Shown: positions 1,349 through 35,787, counted from the first letter of the stretch. The stretch: DNA of 64,000 nucleotides from Pseudomonadota bacterium (GCA_034659015.1 JAYEGL010000011.1:181310-245309); one strand, 5' to 3'. Numbers and translations are program-made. The notes: generated by a model not told the origin, from the letters alone.

Positions 1349-1371
1349 GTCTCTTCACCGGAAATTAGCGT

Positions 1372-1536
1372 GTCATCCCGGACGGATGCCCCGCGCAGGC
1401 GGGGCGTAGATCCGGGACCTATACAGCTCCGCGCGAGCCGGAAGCAGGCTCTGCCGTCGTGACAGCCATAACGAACACCGGGATTATGGGTCCCGGCCCT
1501 GCAGCCCGCCTGCGCGGGCTATTCGACCGGGATGAC
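1372..1536. repeat. 165-bp element with ~52-bp terminal inverted repeats (family A, copy 1), MITE/REP-like
   Basis: The left arm gtcatcccggacggatgccccgcgcaggcggggcgtagatccgggacctata (1372-1423) is the near reverse complement of the right arm at 1485-1536. Each arm carries an internal GC hairpin. A second copy lies at 31438-31601. Confidence 0.8.
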
Positions 1537-1577
1537 AAAGTTGCGGTTTTTGCGAGCACGGCAGCTGCACCAGCAGC

Positions 1578-4473: not shown

Positions 4474-5114
4474 CCGTCCTCGTCCTGGTCATCCGTGGTC
4501 GAACCGATGAGGTCATCTAGTCGGTTTCGGTCGCGGCTTCCATAGGAGCTGTCATTATTTCTTATTGTTTGTGCAATCGGGTCGTCTTCGGCATCGGGCA
4601 GCGGTTGCGTTTCCGCGAGGCGCGAGGTTTCCGGCGCCAGCGTCTGCAGGGCGCGCGCGGTGGCGCTGACCAGGGGATAAATACGGGCCTGGCTGACCCA
4701 GCCGGGCGGGCGGCCGTTCTCGCCCATCGTGGCAGCCATGAAGATCACGCCCAGTCCCAGCAGGACGAGACCGCGCACCACGCCGAAGGCAAAGCCCAGC
4801 GTGCGGTCGACGACATTGACGTCCTCGCCCTTGGCGAGGCCCCGGGACAGCGAGCTGGTGACGAAGGTGACGGCCAGATAGACCAGCAGGAAGATCGATG
4901 CGCCCACGGCCAGCGGCGCCAGCCAGTCCGGGTCGATGATGTCGCGTGCGGGGCCGATGAAGGCCGGCAGGCTCCACAGCGCGGCCAGCGAGGCGGCGAC
5001 GAAGGCCGTGACCGAGAGCGCTTCACGGACAAAGCCGCGCACCAGCGCCAGAAGACCCGAGATCAGCAGGATAGCCAGTCCGATCCCGTCAAAGGCACTC
5101 AGCGAGCTCTCCAT
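4470..5114 (-). CDS. cvpA: CvpA-family membrane protein
   Basis: Multi-pass hydrophobic N-terminal region with an acidic tail. It overlaps the purF start by 4 nt, the classic cvpA-purF arrangement. Confidence 0.85.
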   Translation of the reverse strand: MESSLSAFDGIGLAILLISGLLALVRGFVREALSVTAFVAASLAALWSLPAFIGPARDIIDPDWLAPLAVGASIFLLVYLAVTFVTSSLSRGLAKGEDVNVVDRTLGFAFGVVRGLVLLGLGVIFMAATMGENGRPPGWVSQARIYPLVSATARALQTLAPETSRLAETQPLPDAEDDPIAQTIRNNDSSYGSRDRNRLDDLIGSTTDDQDEDG

Positions 5115-5125
5115 CCCCTTACTCC

Positions 5126-6502
5126 CTACTCTCCCGCCAGGGCCCTCAAAGTCTGCACCAATTCGAGCGCCGTGGCCACGCCGTGCACGCGCACGGGTGT
5201 TTTATTGTCGGCGGCGGCCCGCGGCGCAATGGCCGAGTCGAAACCGAGCTTGGCCGCTTCCTTGAGCCGGGCGTCCGAACGGCCGACGGGACGAACATCG
5301 CCGGAAAGACTGATTTCTCCGTAAACGACGCCTTTGCCCGGCAGCGCCACGTCCATCGCCGAGGACACGATCGCCGCCGCCACGGCCAGATCGGCGGCCG
5401 GTTCGGTGATTTTCAGCCCGCCGGCCACGTTGAGGAAGATGTCGCGGTTGGAGATGTTCACGCCGCAGCGCGCCTCCAGCACGGCGAGCACCATGGCCAG
5501 CCGGCCCGAATCCCAGCCCACCACGGCGCGGCGCGGCGTGCCGAAGGCGGCGGGAGCCACCAGGGCCTGGATTTCCGACAGGACGGGGCGCGTGCCTTCC
5601 ATGCCGGCGAAGACGGCGGCGCCGGGATTGGCCTCGCCGCGGCCGTCCAGAAACAGGGAGGAGGGGTTGGCGACTTGGGCCAGGCCCTTGTCGCCCATTT
5701 CGAAGACGCCGATCTCGTCGGTCGGGCCGAACCGGTTCTTTACCGCGCGCAGGATGCGGAACTGGTGGGCGCGCTCGCCCTCGAAATACAGCACCGCATC
5801 GACCATGTGCTCCACCACGCGGGGCCCGGCGATCTGGCCGTCCTTGGTGACATGGCCGACCAGGATGACGGTGCAGTTGCGCTTTTTCGCAAAGCGCACG
5901 AGTTCCTGGGCGCAGGCGCGCACCTGCGCCACCGTGCCCGGCGCCGCGGCCAGCTGGTCGGTCCACAGGGTCTGGATCGAATCGATGACGACGATGTCCG
6001 GCTTTTCCGATTTCAGCCCGTCGAGAATGTCGTTGAGCGAGGTTTCCGCCGCCAGCGCCACCGGCGCGTCGGCCAGGCCGAGGCGTTTGGCGCGGCGGCG
6101 CACCTGGTCGATCGCCTCCTCGCCGGAAATGTAGATGGCGCGCGTGTCCTGGCTGGCCAGCTGCGCCATGAGCTGCAGCAGGAGGGTCGACTTGCCGATG
6201 CCCGGATCGCCGCCGACCAGGATGGCCGAGCCGGGCACCAGCCCGCCGCCGGCAACCCGGTCGAGTTCCTCAATCCCCGAGCGCATGCGCGGCGTGTCGG
6301 GCGTTTCCGCCCCCAGGTCGACCAGTTCCAGCCGCGCCGCGCGGCCGCGCTTTTTCGGGGCGGTCGCCTGGGTGCCCAGGGGCGCGGCGGGGGCTTCCTC
6401 GACCAGCGTGTTCCACTGGCCGCAATCGTCGCACTTGCCGGCCCATTTGGAATGCACGGCGCCGCAGGACTGGCAGACATAGACACTGTCGGATCGGGCC
6501 AT
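5126..6502 (-). CDS. radA: DNA repair protein RadA
   Basis: N-terminal zinc ribbon (YVCQSCG...CDDCGQWNT), Walker A (GDPGIGKST), KNRFG motif and a Lon-like C-terminal domain. I place the start at MARSDSVYVC, internal to track ORF 5126..6532. Confidence 0.95.
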   Translation of the reverse strand: MARSDSVYVCQSCGAVHSKWAGKCDDCGQWNTLVEEAPAAPLGTQATAPKKRGRAARLELVDLGAETPDTPRMRSGIEELDRVAGGGLVPGSAILVGGDPGIGKSTLLLQLMAQLASQDTRAIYISGEEAIDQVRRRAKRLGLADAPVALAAETSLNDILDGLKSEKPDIVVIDSIQTLWTDQLAAAPGTVAQVRACAQELVRFAKKRNCTVILVGHVTKDGQIAGPRVVEHMVDAVLYFEGERAHQFRILRAVKNRFGPTDEIGVFEMGDKGLAQVANPSSLFLDGRGEANPGAAVFAGMEGTRPVLSEIQALVAPAAFGTPRRAVVGWDSGRLAMVLAVLEARCGVNISNRDIFLNVAGGLKITEPAADLAVAAAIVSSAMDVALPGKGVVYGEISLSGDVRPVGRSDARLKEAAKLGFDSAIAPRAAADNKTPVRVHGVATALELVQTLRALAGE

Positions 6503-31437: not shown

Positions 31438-31601
31438 GTCACCCCGGACGTATGCCCGGCCTCGGGCCGGGCGGAGTTCCGGGGCCCATACTCCCGGTGC
31501 AAACCCAGTTGTTTCCGCTATCGAGCCCGCTTTCGACCTGCAGCGAGTGTATAGGTCCCGGCTCTCCGCCCCGCCTGCGCGGGGCATTCGGCCGGGATGA
31601 C
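31438..31601. repeat. 164-bp inverted-repeat element (family A, copy 2)
   Basis: The left arm gtcaccccggacgtatgcccggcctcgggccgggcggagttccggggcccata (31438-31490) is the near reverse complement of the right arm tataggtcccggctctccgccccgcctgcgcggggcattcggccgggatgac (31550-31601). It is homologous to 1372-1536. Confidence 0.8.
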
Positions 31602-31687
31602 AACGGGGCATGTGGCACATTGGGGTTTATCGAGGCCGTGGTAACGTGTCTGATACCATCAAGCTTGGGTTGCCAGAAAGGACGGGT

Positions 31688-32002
31688 ATGCCGCTCACTC
31701 GTGAATTCAGGATAATCGTCAAGGACGGGGCCGAGCGTGATCCCGAATTCAGGACGGCCCTGTATCGCGAGGCGCTGGAGGCCCTTCTGGCCGGCGACGC
31801 TGCGACCGGGAAGGCAATGCTGCGCGATTTCGTGAATGCCACGATTGGTTTCGAGCAACTCGAAGTGCGTACGGGCACGCCCCGGAAGAGCCTGATGCGA
31901 ATGCTAAGTCCGGCGGGAAACCCGGGGCTGAACAGCCTCCTTTTGGTCTTCAAGGCACTCAATGAGATCGCCGGGACCGAACCGGAAGTGCATGTGCGCT
32001 GA
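31688..32002 (+). CDS. Small HTH DNA-binding protein, antidote/HigA-like
   Basis: MPLTREFRIIVKDGAERDPEFR...KAMLRDFVNATIGFEQL...PRKSLMRMLSPAGNPGLNSLLLVFKAL resembles the roughly 100-aa addiction-module antidote-like HTH family as I remember it. I place the start at M27 of track ORF 31610..32002. Confidence 0.6.
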   Translation: MPLTREFRIIVKDGAERDPEFRTALYREALEALLAGDAATGKAMLRDFVNATIGFEQLEVRTGTPRKSLMRMLSPAGNPGLNSLLLVFKALNEIAGTEPEVHVR

Positions 32003-32137: not shown

Positions 32138-32560
32138 ATGGCGCTGCAACGCACCTTCTCCATCATCAAGCCCGACGCCACTGCCCGCAACATCACCGGC
32201 GCCATCAACGCCAAGATCGAGGACGCCGGCCTGCGCATCATCGCCCAGAAGCGCATCCGTCTGAGCCAGGACCAGGCGGAAGGCTTCTACGCTGTCCACA
32301 AGGAGCGTCCCTTCTTCAACGACCTGGTGTCCTTCATGGTCTCCGGCCCGGTCGTCGTGCAGGTGCTGGAAGGCGAGGACGCCATCGCGAAGTATCGCGA
32401 AGTGATGGGTGCCACCAATCCGGCCGACGCCGCAGAGGGCACGATCCGCAAGGAATTCGCCGAGTCGATCGAAGCCAATTCCGTGCACGGGTCCGACGCT
32501 CCGGAAACCGCCGCCCAGGAAATCCCCTTCTTCTTCTCCGACGACGAGATCGTCGGCTGA
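32138..32560 (+). CDS. ndk: Nucleoside-diphosphate kinase
   Basis: [14 protein letters not shown] start and the active-site region NSVHGSD. 140 aa. Confidence 0.97.
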
Positions 32561-32588
32561 GCCGAAGCGGCATGGCCAGAATGACAAA

Positions 32589-32617
32589 GGGCCCGGCGGT
32601 TGCGCCGGGCCCTTTTT
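32589..32617 (+). terminator. Rho-independent terminator of ndk
   Basis: gggcccggcg-gttg-cgccgggccc followed by ttttt. Confidence 0.85.
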
Positions 32618-32730
32618 CGTTATCAAGCTACTTTTCTCGCGATCAAAAATTGTTCTTGAACGAGGGTAGCTGCTCTGTGAACTTGTGGTAAGCGTTGGCG
32701 ACCATAAAGAGTAGAAAATGGAGCAAATTA

Positions 32731-33798
32731 ATGCGCCGCAGCAGTAACATTCTTACCGAATTTCTGAAGGCGCAGGACGATTTGGTAATCCAGTCTGCCG
32801 ACCTTCCATTGGGAACTTTAGCGGAAATGGTAGGTAGCGGAGCCATTGACCTTGAACCCGGTTTTCAAAGAAGAGAGCGTTGGAAAATTGAGAAACAATC
32901 GGCGTTGATTGAGTCTTTTCTTCTAAATGTTCCTGTCCCTCCAATTTATCTTTCTGAGCAAAATGATGGAACGTACACTGCTATTGATGGAAAGCAGCGC
33001 TTAAAATCTATTTCTGACTACATACTTGGAAAATTTGCTCTCAAAGACTTGGAAAAGCTCGAGTCTGCTCGCGGGTTGAAGTTTTTAGATTTGCCAAGTG
33101 AAATACAAAATTCATTGAAGCTCAGGCCGTATTTGCGTGTCGTTACTTTGCTTCGACAATCCGATCCTTTGCTAAAATATGAGGTCTTTTTGCGTTTGAA
33201 TAGAGGGGGCGAGAGTCTTAATCCTCAGGAAATAAGAAATGTCGCCTTCAGAGGGCGTCTGAATAATTTAATTTATAAACTTTCAGAGAATAAGTTTTTA
33301 CGAAGGCAATTAAAAATAAAGAATTTTACTGAGTCCGCTTATAGGCAGATGTCTGATGCTGAATACGTGCTAAGATTTCTTACGTTGAGAAGCTATTGGT
33401 CAGATTTTAGTGGCTCACTTTCGCGTGAAATGGATAGATTTATGGAGCAAAATAGAAATTGCGACGACGAATTTATCACTAGGTGCGAAAAGGACTTTGA
33501 GTCGGCAATCGGTCGTTGCGAGCAATTGTGGGGAGGGGCGGCTTTTCGGCGGCCAGATGGTGAAAATTGGCGCGATCAAACGCTTGCCGGAATGTATGAC
33601 GCGCAAATGATAGCTTGTTCGGAGATTACTGAGGACCAGTTTAAGCGGGCAATCAGGAAAAAAGAGAGCATAACTCAGAAAACGCGTAGTTTGTTCGATG
33701 ATGGCGAGTTCGATCAGGCGGTTAGAACTGGTACGAACACACCAAGTAGAATTCAGCTGAGAGTCGAACGGATGATGGGAATGTTGGCTGAGGTCTAA
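32731..33798 (+). CDS. DUF262 (ParB/Srx-like) domain protein, stand-alone
   Basis: Motifs PGFQRRERW (nt 32857-32883), DGKQR (32986-33000) and FLRLNRGGESL (33187-33219) match the DUF262 pattern. The ATG at 32731 has GGAG 7 nt upstream. The track start at 32695 is a TTG with no clear SD. Confidence 0.85.
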   Translation: MRRSSNILTEFLKAQDDLVIQSADLPLGTLAEMVGSGAIDLEPGFQRRERWKIEKQSALIESFLLNVPVPPIYLSEQNDGTYTAIDGKQRLKSISDYILGKFALKDLEKLESARGLKFLDLPSEIQNSLKLRPYLRVVTLLRQSDPLLKYEVFLRLNRGGESLNPQEIRNVAFRGRLNNLIYKLSENKFLRRQLKIKNFTESAYRQMSDAEYVLRFLTLRSYWSDFSGSLSREMDRFMEQNRNCDDEFITRCEKDFESAIGRCEQLWGGAAFRRPDGENWRDQTLAGMYDAQMIACSEITEDQFKRAIRKKESITQKTRSLFDDGEFDQAVRTGTNTPSRIQLRVERMMGMLAEV

Positions 33799-33799
33799 T

Positions 33800-34708
33800 T
33801 TGCTTTCTTCCTATTACACAACATTGATCGCCCTTAAGGGCGCGCTGTCTGATCCATTGCTAGTAGGAGGCGTCCCTAGTTCTGGTGCTCTGGGTCAAGA
33901 CGCATCGGCCAGCTTAAGGCTTGGTGGAGCGGTCGTGGTTTATTCGATGCTCGAGGATCATATCGATAAGGCCGTCGACCGCTTGGTGGATTTTGTGTCC
34001 GCTAGAGGTTTTGACGCTCGTCTTTTCCCGGAAAAATTGCAAAAATTCTTGATTGTTGATGCTATCAGTTCGATGGCGAACCAAATGCGGTTTCAAGAAA
34101 GTGGCGAGAATGTAGCGAGCGCAATGACAAATATCCCAAAGTTGAGTTTGGTAACTGAAACTCCGTCAGAATTCCGTTTGCATGGTCTGCGAAAGCAGGG
34201 GTCAAATGTTGTCTTTAAAGATGTGACGGGCGCATTCGGAGCGTTTGGCGTCAAAAATCTTTTTGAAGGAAAGTTGAAAGACATATTGAACGATATTGGT
34301 GGCTCTCGACCAAGTCCAAAGCAAGATTTCATTACACTTTCAAAGACAAGAAATAGCTCGGCGCACAAAGCATACCATAGTATATCTATAAGTAATCTGC
34401 AAAATCATATAGATTCTGCTATTCTTTTGGGTGTTGCTATTGATTGTTTAATTCGGTTTATGAGTGCGGCGATAAAATTTTACAATAACGAGTCCGATTT
34501 TGATGCAGAGATGAGTTTTCCCGCTAAGCAATACAGGTTTTTGGACGAAGTGGGTGTCGGAAAATTTGTGGAGTCCGTCTCGGGAGCAAAACGGGCTAGC
34601 AAAAAATATTCGACGCTAGAGGCTGGGCTTCGGGGCTGTATGAGCCGCGCTTCTGATCTGCCCATCGTAGTGCGGAGAGCTCAGTTTCCAATTGGAGTGG
34701 CGTATTAG
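33800..34708 (+). CDS. HEPN-like protein with R-x4-H motif (MAE_28990/MAE_18760-like by motif layout)
   Basis: RNSSAH at aa 184-189 (nt 34349-34366) sits in a predicted helical context, and an early helix AVVVYSMLEDHIDKAV is placed like the first HEPN helix. The TTG start has GAGG 6 nt upstream and lies 1 nt after the upstream stop. The family assignment is an inference. Confidence 0.7.
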   Translation: MLSSYYTTLIALKGALSDPLLVGGVPSSGALGQDASASLRLGGAVVVYSMLEDHIDKAVDRLVDFVSARGFDARLFPEKLQKFLIVDAISSMANQMRFQESGENVASAMTNIPKLSLVTETPSEFRLHGLRKQGSNVVFKDVTGAFGAFGVKNLFEGKLKDILNDIGGSRPSPKQDFITLSKTRNSSAHKAYHSISISNLQNHIDSAILLGVAIDCLIRFMSAAIKFYNNESDFDAEMSFPAKQYRFLDEVGVGKFVESVSGAKRASKKYSTLEAGLRGCMSRASDLPIVVRRAQFPIGVAY

Positions 34709-34773
34709 CCACTGATTGGACGTGAGCGAAAGTGCAGAGCGTAAAAAATAGGTACATGTGGTAGTCTTCGCTC

Positions 34774-35787
34774 ATGTCCGCGCTCCACGATCTCATCCGG
34801 CGCCTGCCCAAGGCCGAGCTTCACATGCATCTGGAAGGTTCGCTGGAGCCGGAGATGATGTTCGAGCTGGCGCAGCGAAACGGCATCGCCATCCCCTACG
34901 ACACGCCGGAAGCGGTGCGGGCGGCGTATGATTTCTCCAGCCTGCAGGACTTCCTCGACATCTATTATGCCGGGATGAGCGTGCTGGTCACCGAGCGCGA
35001 TTTCTTCGACCTGACCCGCGCCTATCTCGACCGGTGCGCCGAAGACAATGTCCGCCATGTCGAGGTCTTCTTCGATCCCCAGGCCCATACCGAGCGGGGC
35101 ATCGCTTTCGAGACCGTGCTCAACGGCATCACGGCGGCGCTGGACGCGGGCGAGGACGAGCTGGGCATCACGTCCAAACTCATCCTGTGCTTCCTGCGGC
35201 ACCTGTCCGAGGAGGCCGCGCGCGACGTGTTCGAACTGGCGCGCCCGCATCTCAACGATATCGACGGGGTGGGGCTGGATTCCTCCGAGCTGGGCCATCC
35301 GCCCTCCAAATTCGCCCGCGTCTTCCACCTGGCCGGCGAACTGGGCCTGAAACGCGTCGCTCATGCCGGCGAGGAGGGGCCGCCGGACTATGTCCGCGAA
35401 GCGCTCGACATCCTGGAGATCGACCGGCTCGATCACGGCAATCGCGCGCTGGAGGATCACCACCTGGTCGAGCGCCTGGCCGCCGAACAGATGACGCTGA
35501 CCGTCTGCCCGCTCTCCAATCTGCGCCTGTGCGGGGTGGCGCGGCTGGAGGATCACCCCCTCAAGCGCATGCTGGAGCTGGGCCTGCGCGCCACGGTGAA
35601 CTCGGACGATCCGGCCTATTTCGGCGGCTATGTGAACGAGAATTATATCCGCATCGCCGACGCCCTGGGCCTGACGGAAGACGAGATCGTCACCCTGGCG
35701 CGCAACAGTTTCCGCGGCGCCTTCCTGCCGCCCCAGCTGATCGAGCGCCACCTGCACGAGATCGACGCCGTCGTGGAAAAGGTCTGA
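34774..35787 (+). CDS. add: Adenosine deaminase
   Basis: LPKAELHMHLEGS metal-binding start, plus HAGE and SDDPAYFG motifs. Confidence 0.95.
   Translation: MSALHDLIRRLPKAELHMHLEGSLEPEMMFELAQRNGIAIPYDTPEAVRAAYDFSSLQDFLDIYYAGMSVLVTERDFFDLTRAYLDRCAEDNVRHVEVFFDPQAHTERGIAFETVLNGITAALDAGEDELGITSKLILCFLRHLSEEAARDVFELARPHLNDIDGVGLDSSELGHPPSKFARVFHLAGELGLKRVAHAGEEGPPDYVREALDILEIDRLDHGNRALEDHHLVERLAAEQMTLTVCPLSNLRLCGVARLEDHPLKRMLELGLRATVNSDDPAYFGGYVNENYIRIADALGLTEDEIVTLARNSFRGAFLPPQLIERHLHEIDAVVEKV

Follow-up and report, generated by a model that had tools for sequence, protein, structure and literature searches.

A divergent HEPN-type gene with a DUF2188-like C-terminal domain, paired with a DUF262 gene in a mobile low-GC island, as a probable defence cassette of the PD-T4-2 kind

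The pairing of a DUF262 gene with a HEPN gene is already known and published, and the HEPN family considered here is labelled as such in public databases. PD-T4-2, described as "DUF262, HEPN," is a system of Escherichia coli whose deletion from strain ECOR65 restores plaquing by phage T4 (PMC9519451; Vassallo et al. 2022), and a "Ribo L-PSP-HEPN ... operon with ParB" already stands in a table of the 2013 survey of the HEPN superfamily (PMC3710099; Anantharaman et al. 2013). The mechanism of PD-T4-2 is still called uncharacterised in the survey of the Menshen system (NsnABC), the main text of which does not use the term HEPN (PMC12065111). In GmrSD, BrxU and SspE, the half responsible for sensing and NTPase activity is DUF262 (PMC10952713). 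How does a two-gene island of a Pseudomonadota bacterium, in which a DUF262 gene is followed by a gene for a helical protein with an R-x4-H motif, compare with these systems?

The locus lies in a stretch of 64,000 nucleotides, hereafter the window (GCA_034659015.1, JAYEGL010000011.1:181310-245309), and all coordinates are counted from its first letter. The features of the locus are as follows.

32138-32560: ndk, nucleoside diphosphate kinase gene (Pfam NDK)
32586-32615: terminator hairpin of ndk
32620-34770, no strand: low-GC two-gene island, from the composition profile, bounded by the terminator of ndk and the adenosine deaminase gene
32731-33798, plus strand: gene 1, encoding a DUF262 (ParB-like) plus ParBDB-type protein, NsnA/PD-T4-2A-like (Pfam, PADLOC, phrog)
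33790-33793, plus strand: GAGG ribosome-binding site of gene 2, 6 nt ahead of its TTG start
33800-34708, plus strand: gene 2, encoding a predicted HEPN protein (RiboL-PSP/MAE_28990-type) of 302 aa with a C-terminal DUF2188-like domain
34349-34366, plus strand: R184-N-S-S-A-H189, the putative R-x4-H catalytic signature (sequence, conservation, position in the model)
34774-35787: add, adenosine deaminase gene (Pfam A_deaminase)

The composition profile sets off an island of 2.1 kb with a G+C content of ~44 to 48% against a window background of ~67%. A LysE gene is a further flanking gene that could be named by Pfam, and Pfam annotation of the flanking genes found no further defence genes near the cassette. 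A search of the island borders found no tRNA, integrase or flanking direct repeat and turned up no promoter-like site, and no Rfam family matches within or near the island. The island sequence is present only in metagenome DNA runs, and the metagenome contigs revealed no relative with an empty ndk-add site.

The window comes from a brine metagenome. Short contigs identical to the island (32600-34780), with a depth of 2 to 3x, occur in three further runs (X2 to X4), namely, an unrelated organism-labelled run, an estuary metagenome and a marine metagenome, so that the same organism or cassette must also occur, at low abundance, in several other saline settings. Just past the stop codon of gene 2, a 13-nt inverted repeat (GGACGTGAGCGAA / TTCGCTCATGTCC) with a 36-nt spacer occupies 34718-34779 and overlaps the start codon of the adenosine deaminase gene at 34774. 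This repeat may represent a scar of the junction or a hairpin with a regulatory or terminator function. Three copies of a GC-rich intergenic repeat, ~80 nt long and with ~85% identity, are present in the window (31523-31602; 1371-1451, minus strand; 1485-1538, plus strand). The copy upstream of ndk reaches a depth of 905x in the source metagenome compared to ~60x otherwise, indicating that it is probably a multicopy REP/MITE-like element. Between an ABC-F ATPase gene and ndk, and outside the low-GC island, a 130-aa open reading frame (31610-32002, plus strand) has no Pfam match at an E value of ≤0.001 and by eye looks like a small HTH- or antitoxin-type regulator.

Gene 2 starts with TTG, 1 nt past the stop codon of gene 1 (33796-33798), and this stop codon lies between the GAGG site and the start of gene 2, so that the two genes are probably translationally coupled. 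The initial annotation had read from the sequence the open reading frame, an RNSSAH motif at R184 to H189 and its placement at 34349-34366, and these coordinates and residues are exact, codons 184 to 189 being aga aat agc tcg gcg cac. Motifs of this type come up easily by chance: when the gene 2 protein is shuffled, R-x4-6-H turns up once or more in 56% of the shuffled sequences, the mean number of matches being 0.77. Such a coincidence in a helical protein of unrelated function therefore has to be weighed, and the lack of a significant fold match in the PDB might also be taken to favor it.

Conservation speaks for the motif. An exhaustive HMMER scan recovered 167 cluster representatives of the gene 2 family at an E value of ≤1e-3, nearly all of 290 to 315 aa and matched end to end, and of 149 family representatives, 145 carry R-x3-A-H. 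When 86 homologues, 18 to 32% identical to the gene 2 protein, are aligned, R184, A188 and H189 are invariant in all 86, as are R40, G42, E52 and N136, while F48, W155, G167 and R246 are nearly invariant. The initial annotation would have been refuted by a lack of conservation of the R-x4-H motif among homologues, but conservation holds without exception for R184 and H189. This invariance marks RNSSAH as a conserved functional site rather than a coincidental match. Together with Pfam HEPN matches in 72 of the 86 homologues and a profile alignment that places the motif in register with that of a bona fide HEPN protein (see below), it effectively refutes the chance reading, to which we assign a negligible probability.

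The single sequence of the gene 2 protein stays out of reach of several direct searches. The only match of a word-indexed protein search was the query, phmmer against the PDB returned noise, comparison with PADLOC and NCBIfam models gave no matches, and no meaningful match came from tblastn against plasmids and phages. AlphaFold2, run with the family alignment, gave a model with a pLDDT of 94.4 and a pTM of 0.92 that is all-alpha from aa 1 to 239, from which, with the invariant columns and hhalign, the core could be delimited.

33875-34477, plus strand: predicted HEPN domain core, aa 26-226 (AlphaFold2 model, invariant columns, hhalign)

This core opens with a long helix (26-68) that carries R40, G42 and E52; a helical insert with N136 spans 78-165, and a helix at 173-189, a loop at 190-196 and a long last helix at 197-226 follow. 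The penultimate helix ends, at its C terminus, in RNSSAH, ahead of the loop to helix 197-226, which is the position described for R-x4-6-H in the 2013 survey, in which an insert between helices 2 and 3 is characteristic (PMC3710099); in the model, the helical elements that separate the early helix from the late ones match this insert. The early helix pointed out from the sequence, AVVVYSMLEDHIDKAVDRLV, falls within model helix 26-68, and the amphipathic helix said to follow the motif (NLQNHIDS...AAIKF) is model helix 197-226. The predicted structure, all-alpha to aa 239 with the motif closing the penultimate helix, is thus consistent with a HEPN core around R184 and H189 rather than with the absence of one.

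Which HEPN branch the protein belongs to can be read from its relatives. The gene 2 protein itself scores 15.5 bits (E value, 0.016) against PF18735 (HEPN_RiboL-PSP), below the gathering threshold of 28.4, over aa 155-218, corresponding to profile positions 121-189 of 191. PF18735 matches 72 of the 86 homologues at an E value of ≤0.01 (best, 2.5e-11), and PF18737 (HEPN_MAE_28990) matches 17 of 86. Given this subthreshold score in a family whose homologues do match, the gene 2 protein is a divergent relative of PF18735 and not a scoring member. A profile search of a large database added 125 further relatives of ~307 aa, mostly with precomputed PF18735 annotation and some named "HEPN" or "RiboL-PSP-HEPN domain-containing protein" by NCBI or UniRef; the HEPN-named relatives occur in Pseudomonas, Vibrio, Marinobacter, Halomonas and Aeromonas. 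Aligned by hhalign with a Vibrio phage RiboL-PSP HEPN protein that scores 68 bits to Pfam, the family profile gave a probability of 87.5% and an E value of 3.6e-6, pairing E52, N136 and R184 to H189 in register (YSMLEDHID with LYGIFEGFLE, GSN with SAN, and TRNSSAH with RRNHIAH). The alignment with the HEPN protein of phage P2_4B2 was not significant, though the R-x4-H motifs lined up. In Foldseek against BFVD, the top match was a MAE_28990-like HEPN protein (E value, 0.034; probability, 1.0; TM score, 0.51), while the full model had no match in the PDB at an E value of ≤0.001, and profile searches of the PDB with the family and C-terminal alignments gave noise, such as a weak match to uL22 (E value, 0.37). 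The assignment to the RiboL-PSP/MAE_28990 type, first suggested from the position of the early helix, is borne out by the two Pfam families, the hhalign match and the top BFVD match, and we regard the HEPN identity of the gene 2 product as very likely.

Gene 1 encodes the presumed partner of this HEPN protein. Its longest open reading frame (32695-33798) starts with TTG and encodes 367 aa; the likely start is the ATG at 32731, with GGAG ahead of it, giving 355 aa in agreement with the Logan gene call. The product matches Pfam GmrSD_N (DUF262) at 2.8e-21, PADLOC NsnA at 2.5e-71 (aa 28-366 on profile positions 42-381 of 385), PADLOC PD-T4-2_A at 2.8e-34 (aa 42-359 on profile positions 43-356 of 363) and phrog_2598 at 6.4e-68, besides a weak match to PADLOC REase_II. 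The DUF262 nucleotide-pocket motif occurs in the version IDGKQR at aa 97-102 (367-aa numbering), and IDG(K/R)QR is kept in all loci. Gene 1 is presumed to encode a sensor/NTPase.

The two genes travel together. Six relatives of gene 1 were found in GTDB species genomes, in Rhodopseudomonas, an uncultured alphaproteobacterium, Onishia, Nocardioides, a Phycisphaerae MAG and a Hydrogenedentes MAG, and all six are directly followed by a member of the gene 2 family, with a gap of -4 to +13 nt between the paired genes. All six loci that were profiled (L002 to L007) form a low-GC island of ~2 kb. Three distant family members (P0100, P0144 and P0066) likewise have a GmrSD_N gene of 354 to 371 aa directly upstream; the NCBI contig of P0144 is the same record as locus L004. 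In total, a DUF262 gene lies directly upstream of the family member in all nine other loci examined, which cover five phyla (Alpha- and Gammaproteobacteria, Actinomycetota, Planctomycetota and Hydrogenedentes). The DUF262-HEPN pair is mobile, passing among unrelated genomes in the form of a low-GC island.

In locus L007, from the uncultured alphaproteobacterial MAG (CAVVPM010000009.1), the DUF262 gene (5001-6052) is frameshifted after "...RLNRGG," and the downstream HEPN gene is intact, encoding 295 aa with RNRVAH; the frameshift reflects either a decaying cassette or an assembly error.

Could the pair be a toxin-antitoxin or addiction module, in which a constitutive HEPN RNase toxin is held by the DUF262 protein and the module stabilizes itself or its DNA? 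HEPN RNases are common as toxins of such modules (PMC3710099), the two genes are tightly coupled, and the cassette is small and mobile with no other defence genes nearby. However, the presumed toxin gene comes second and is much the same size as its partner, and the partner keeps IDG(K/R)QR in all loci, an NTP pocket that an inert antitoxin would not need. Moreover, PD-T4-2, the closest tested relative, protects its native strain from T4, and the loss of gene 1 with an intact gene 2 in L007 is unexpected for an essential antitoxin, though an assembly error would explain it as well. An addiction module is thus an unlikely reading of the pair.

The DUF262 half also invites comparison with type IV restriction. 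In a split system like GmrSD, the DUF262 protein would read modified phage DNA, and the HEPN-fold protein would stand in place of DUF1524, either acting on DNA or having only a structural or regulatory role, without acting on RNA. The known sensing and NTPase role of DUF262 in GmrSD, BrxU and SspE (PMC10952713) fits this proposal, as do the weak REase_II match of gene 1 and the activity of PD-T4-2 on T4, a phage with modified DNA. Yet all characterised active R-x4-6-H HEPN domains are RNases or RNA binding (PMC3710099), neither gene has a Pfam match to DUF1524 or to another DNase domain, and the invariance of R184 and H189 together with E52 and N136 argues for a catalytic HEPN. We consider a split DNA restriction system distinctly unlikely.

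The reading that we prefer is that gene 2 encodes a HEPN ribonuclease of the RiboL-PSP/MAE_28990 branch and that, with the DUF262 gene, it forms a mobile two-gene antiphage cassette of the PD-T4-2 kind, which we think probable. Its activity as an RNase, its trigger, its RNA target and the interaction between the two proteins are proposed by analogy with DUF262 proteins (GmrSD, BrxU, SspE and NsnA) and with HEPN effectors. On that analogy, the DUF262/ParBDB protein would bind and sense invading DNA, possibly modified, via the NTP-binding IDGKQR pocket and would then release or activate its HEPN partner. The partner, probably a dimer with a composite R/H active site, would cleave tRNA, rRNA or mRNA and so stop phage replication, most likely at a cost to host growth.

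Phages and prophages carry pairs of the same layout, in which a DUF262 gene is likewise followed by a bona fide HEPN gene: genes 7 and 6 of Vibrio phage 10N.286.55.A5_PE003, gp38 and gp39 of Klebsiella phage ST16-OXA48phi5.4, and gp44 and gp43 of P2_4B2. The gene order is the same, and the A proteins match NsnA and PD-T4-2_A with similar scores. The B proteins are PF18735 or PF18737 HEPNs above the Pfam thresholds, with R-x4-H, but they are 220, 239 and 355 aa long, and none matches the gene 2 family outside the HEPN core. These phage partners either lack a C-terminal extension or carry a different one, indicating that the C terminus of the HEPN partner is a lineage-variable add-on. Gene 6 of the Vibrio phage (L009, 3625-4692; 355 aa) has a C-terminal extension of its own, ~110 aa long and unrelated in sequence to the DUF2188-like domain of gene 2, which suggests that HEPN effectors associated with DUF262 carry C-terminal modules that are polymorphic, as reported for NsnC of Menshen.

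That domain is the second part of the gene 2 protein.

34520-34705, plus strand: C-terminal domain, aa 241-302 (secondary structure, conservation, DUF2188 matches, charge)

An unassigned C-terminal extension of ~85 aa had been noticed in the sequence. The extension is real and conserved, but it spans ~62 aa, from aa 241 to 302 and not from about aa 215, and it is DUF2188-like. In the model, the HEPN part runs to about aa 226, and a short helix at 231-239 joins it to a domain of three strands, a helix and two strands, which is confidently modelled both in context and alone. R246, F247, D249, E258, R283 and R292 are conserved, and since this conservation is family-wide, the domain is not peculiar to the gene 2 protein. 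It is basic, with a net charge of +6 in the gene 2 protein and a family mean of +4.1, compared to +0.5 for the HEPN part.

Pfam DUF2188 (PF09954) matches 6 of 39 homologous C-terminal segments, two of them (27.7 and 22.5 bits) above the gathering score of 22; the segment of the gene 2 protein itself has no match to DUF2188. Papers citing Burroughs & Aravind 2020 describe DUF2188 only as "linked to bacterial defense." In BFVD, the domain superposes on uncharacterised phage proteins of 57 to 87 aa with a probability of 0.9 to 0.99. The C-terminal alignment gave no match in a word-indexed search, and Foldseek against the PDB gave nothing significant for this domain (E value, ≥0.23). Its weak PDB matches point no further than to a generic core of the HicB/RNase-H-like type, with three strands, one helix and a further strand. 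TolR, TTHA1013, the HicB-like antitoxin 3k6q, ASKHA kinases and AcrIF5 (E value, ≥0.23) were set aside as resemblances in topology only. If a role is to be guessed at, the likeliest for this domain is to bind nucleic acid or to dock the partner. In the cassette, this basic domain may position or gate the RNase, which is the least-supported step of the proposed mechanism.

PADLOC does not call this locus, since only the A gene matches its models, and it does so under the names of two systems. The PADLOC PD-T4-2_B model matches neither the gene 2 product nor any of its 86 relatives, and because it misses a HEPN family of ~300 aa, DUF262-HEPN cassettes are likely undercounted in defence censuses. 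The cassette described here is a compact pair of putative sensor and RNase found across five phyla and temperate phages, and it would be tractable for studying the control of an RNase by a ParB-like NTPase as well as the function of DUF2188. If the gating role proposed for the C-terminal domain is true, it would be the first function for DUF2188, a widespread orphan domain. Current understanding is not overturned by this cassette.

Among the known systems, GmrSD and type IV restriction share GmrSD_N with gene 1, but their DUF1524 HNH nuclease is missing from both genes. In Menshen, NsnA is the best model for gene 1, with which it shares DUF262 and a ParBDB-type C-terminal half, and the proposed logic is also alike, with a DUF262 DNA sensor, an RNase effector and polymorphic accessory domains (PMC12065111). 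However, the island carries no NsnB ABC ATPase (AAA_15 plus DUF3696), the neighbor of gene 1 being the HEPN gene instead, and no NsnC, which combines an inactive PIN with a BECR-type nuclease, whereas the gene 2 product combines an all-alpha HEPN with a small alpha/beta domain and has no match to the PADLOC NsnC model. Membership in Menshen was rejected on the absence of NsnB and NsnC despite the strong NsnA match.

Like the RiboL-PSP and MAE_28990 HEPN families, the gene 2 protein has R-x4-H, an acidic residue conserved in its N-terminal helix and a ParB-like operon partner, and most of its relatives reach or come close to the Pfam model; the PF18735 model, with 191 positions, stops at about aa 218 of the gene 2 protein and leaves the C-terminal domain uncovered. 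PD-T4-2, the closest tested relative, also has two genes in the order DUF262 then HEPN; gene 1 matches PD-T4-2_A at almost full length, and the published HHpred assignment of PD-T4-2B is to PF18735 (97.8%) and PF18737 (96.9%), the same Pfam pair as in the gene 2 family. The two B proteins differ in build. The PD-T4-2 open reading frames span 1,540 nt, and the Pfam alignment of PD-T4-2B covers aa 23-163, suggesting a protein of ~165 aa that could not accommodate a C-terminal domain. Judged by this size, the gene 2 product, at 302 aa, is roughly twice as long and has a bigger helical insert and an added DUF2188-like domain. Tentatively, and with considerable doubt, the ~300-aa HEPNs with this domain might even form a mechanistically distinct subtype of DUF262-HEPN systems, overlooked by present defence finders, in which not the DUF262 partner alone but the C-terminal domain would bind a specific nucleic-acid or nucleotide cue and gate the RNase.
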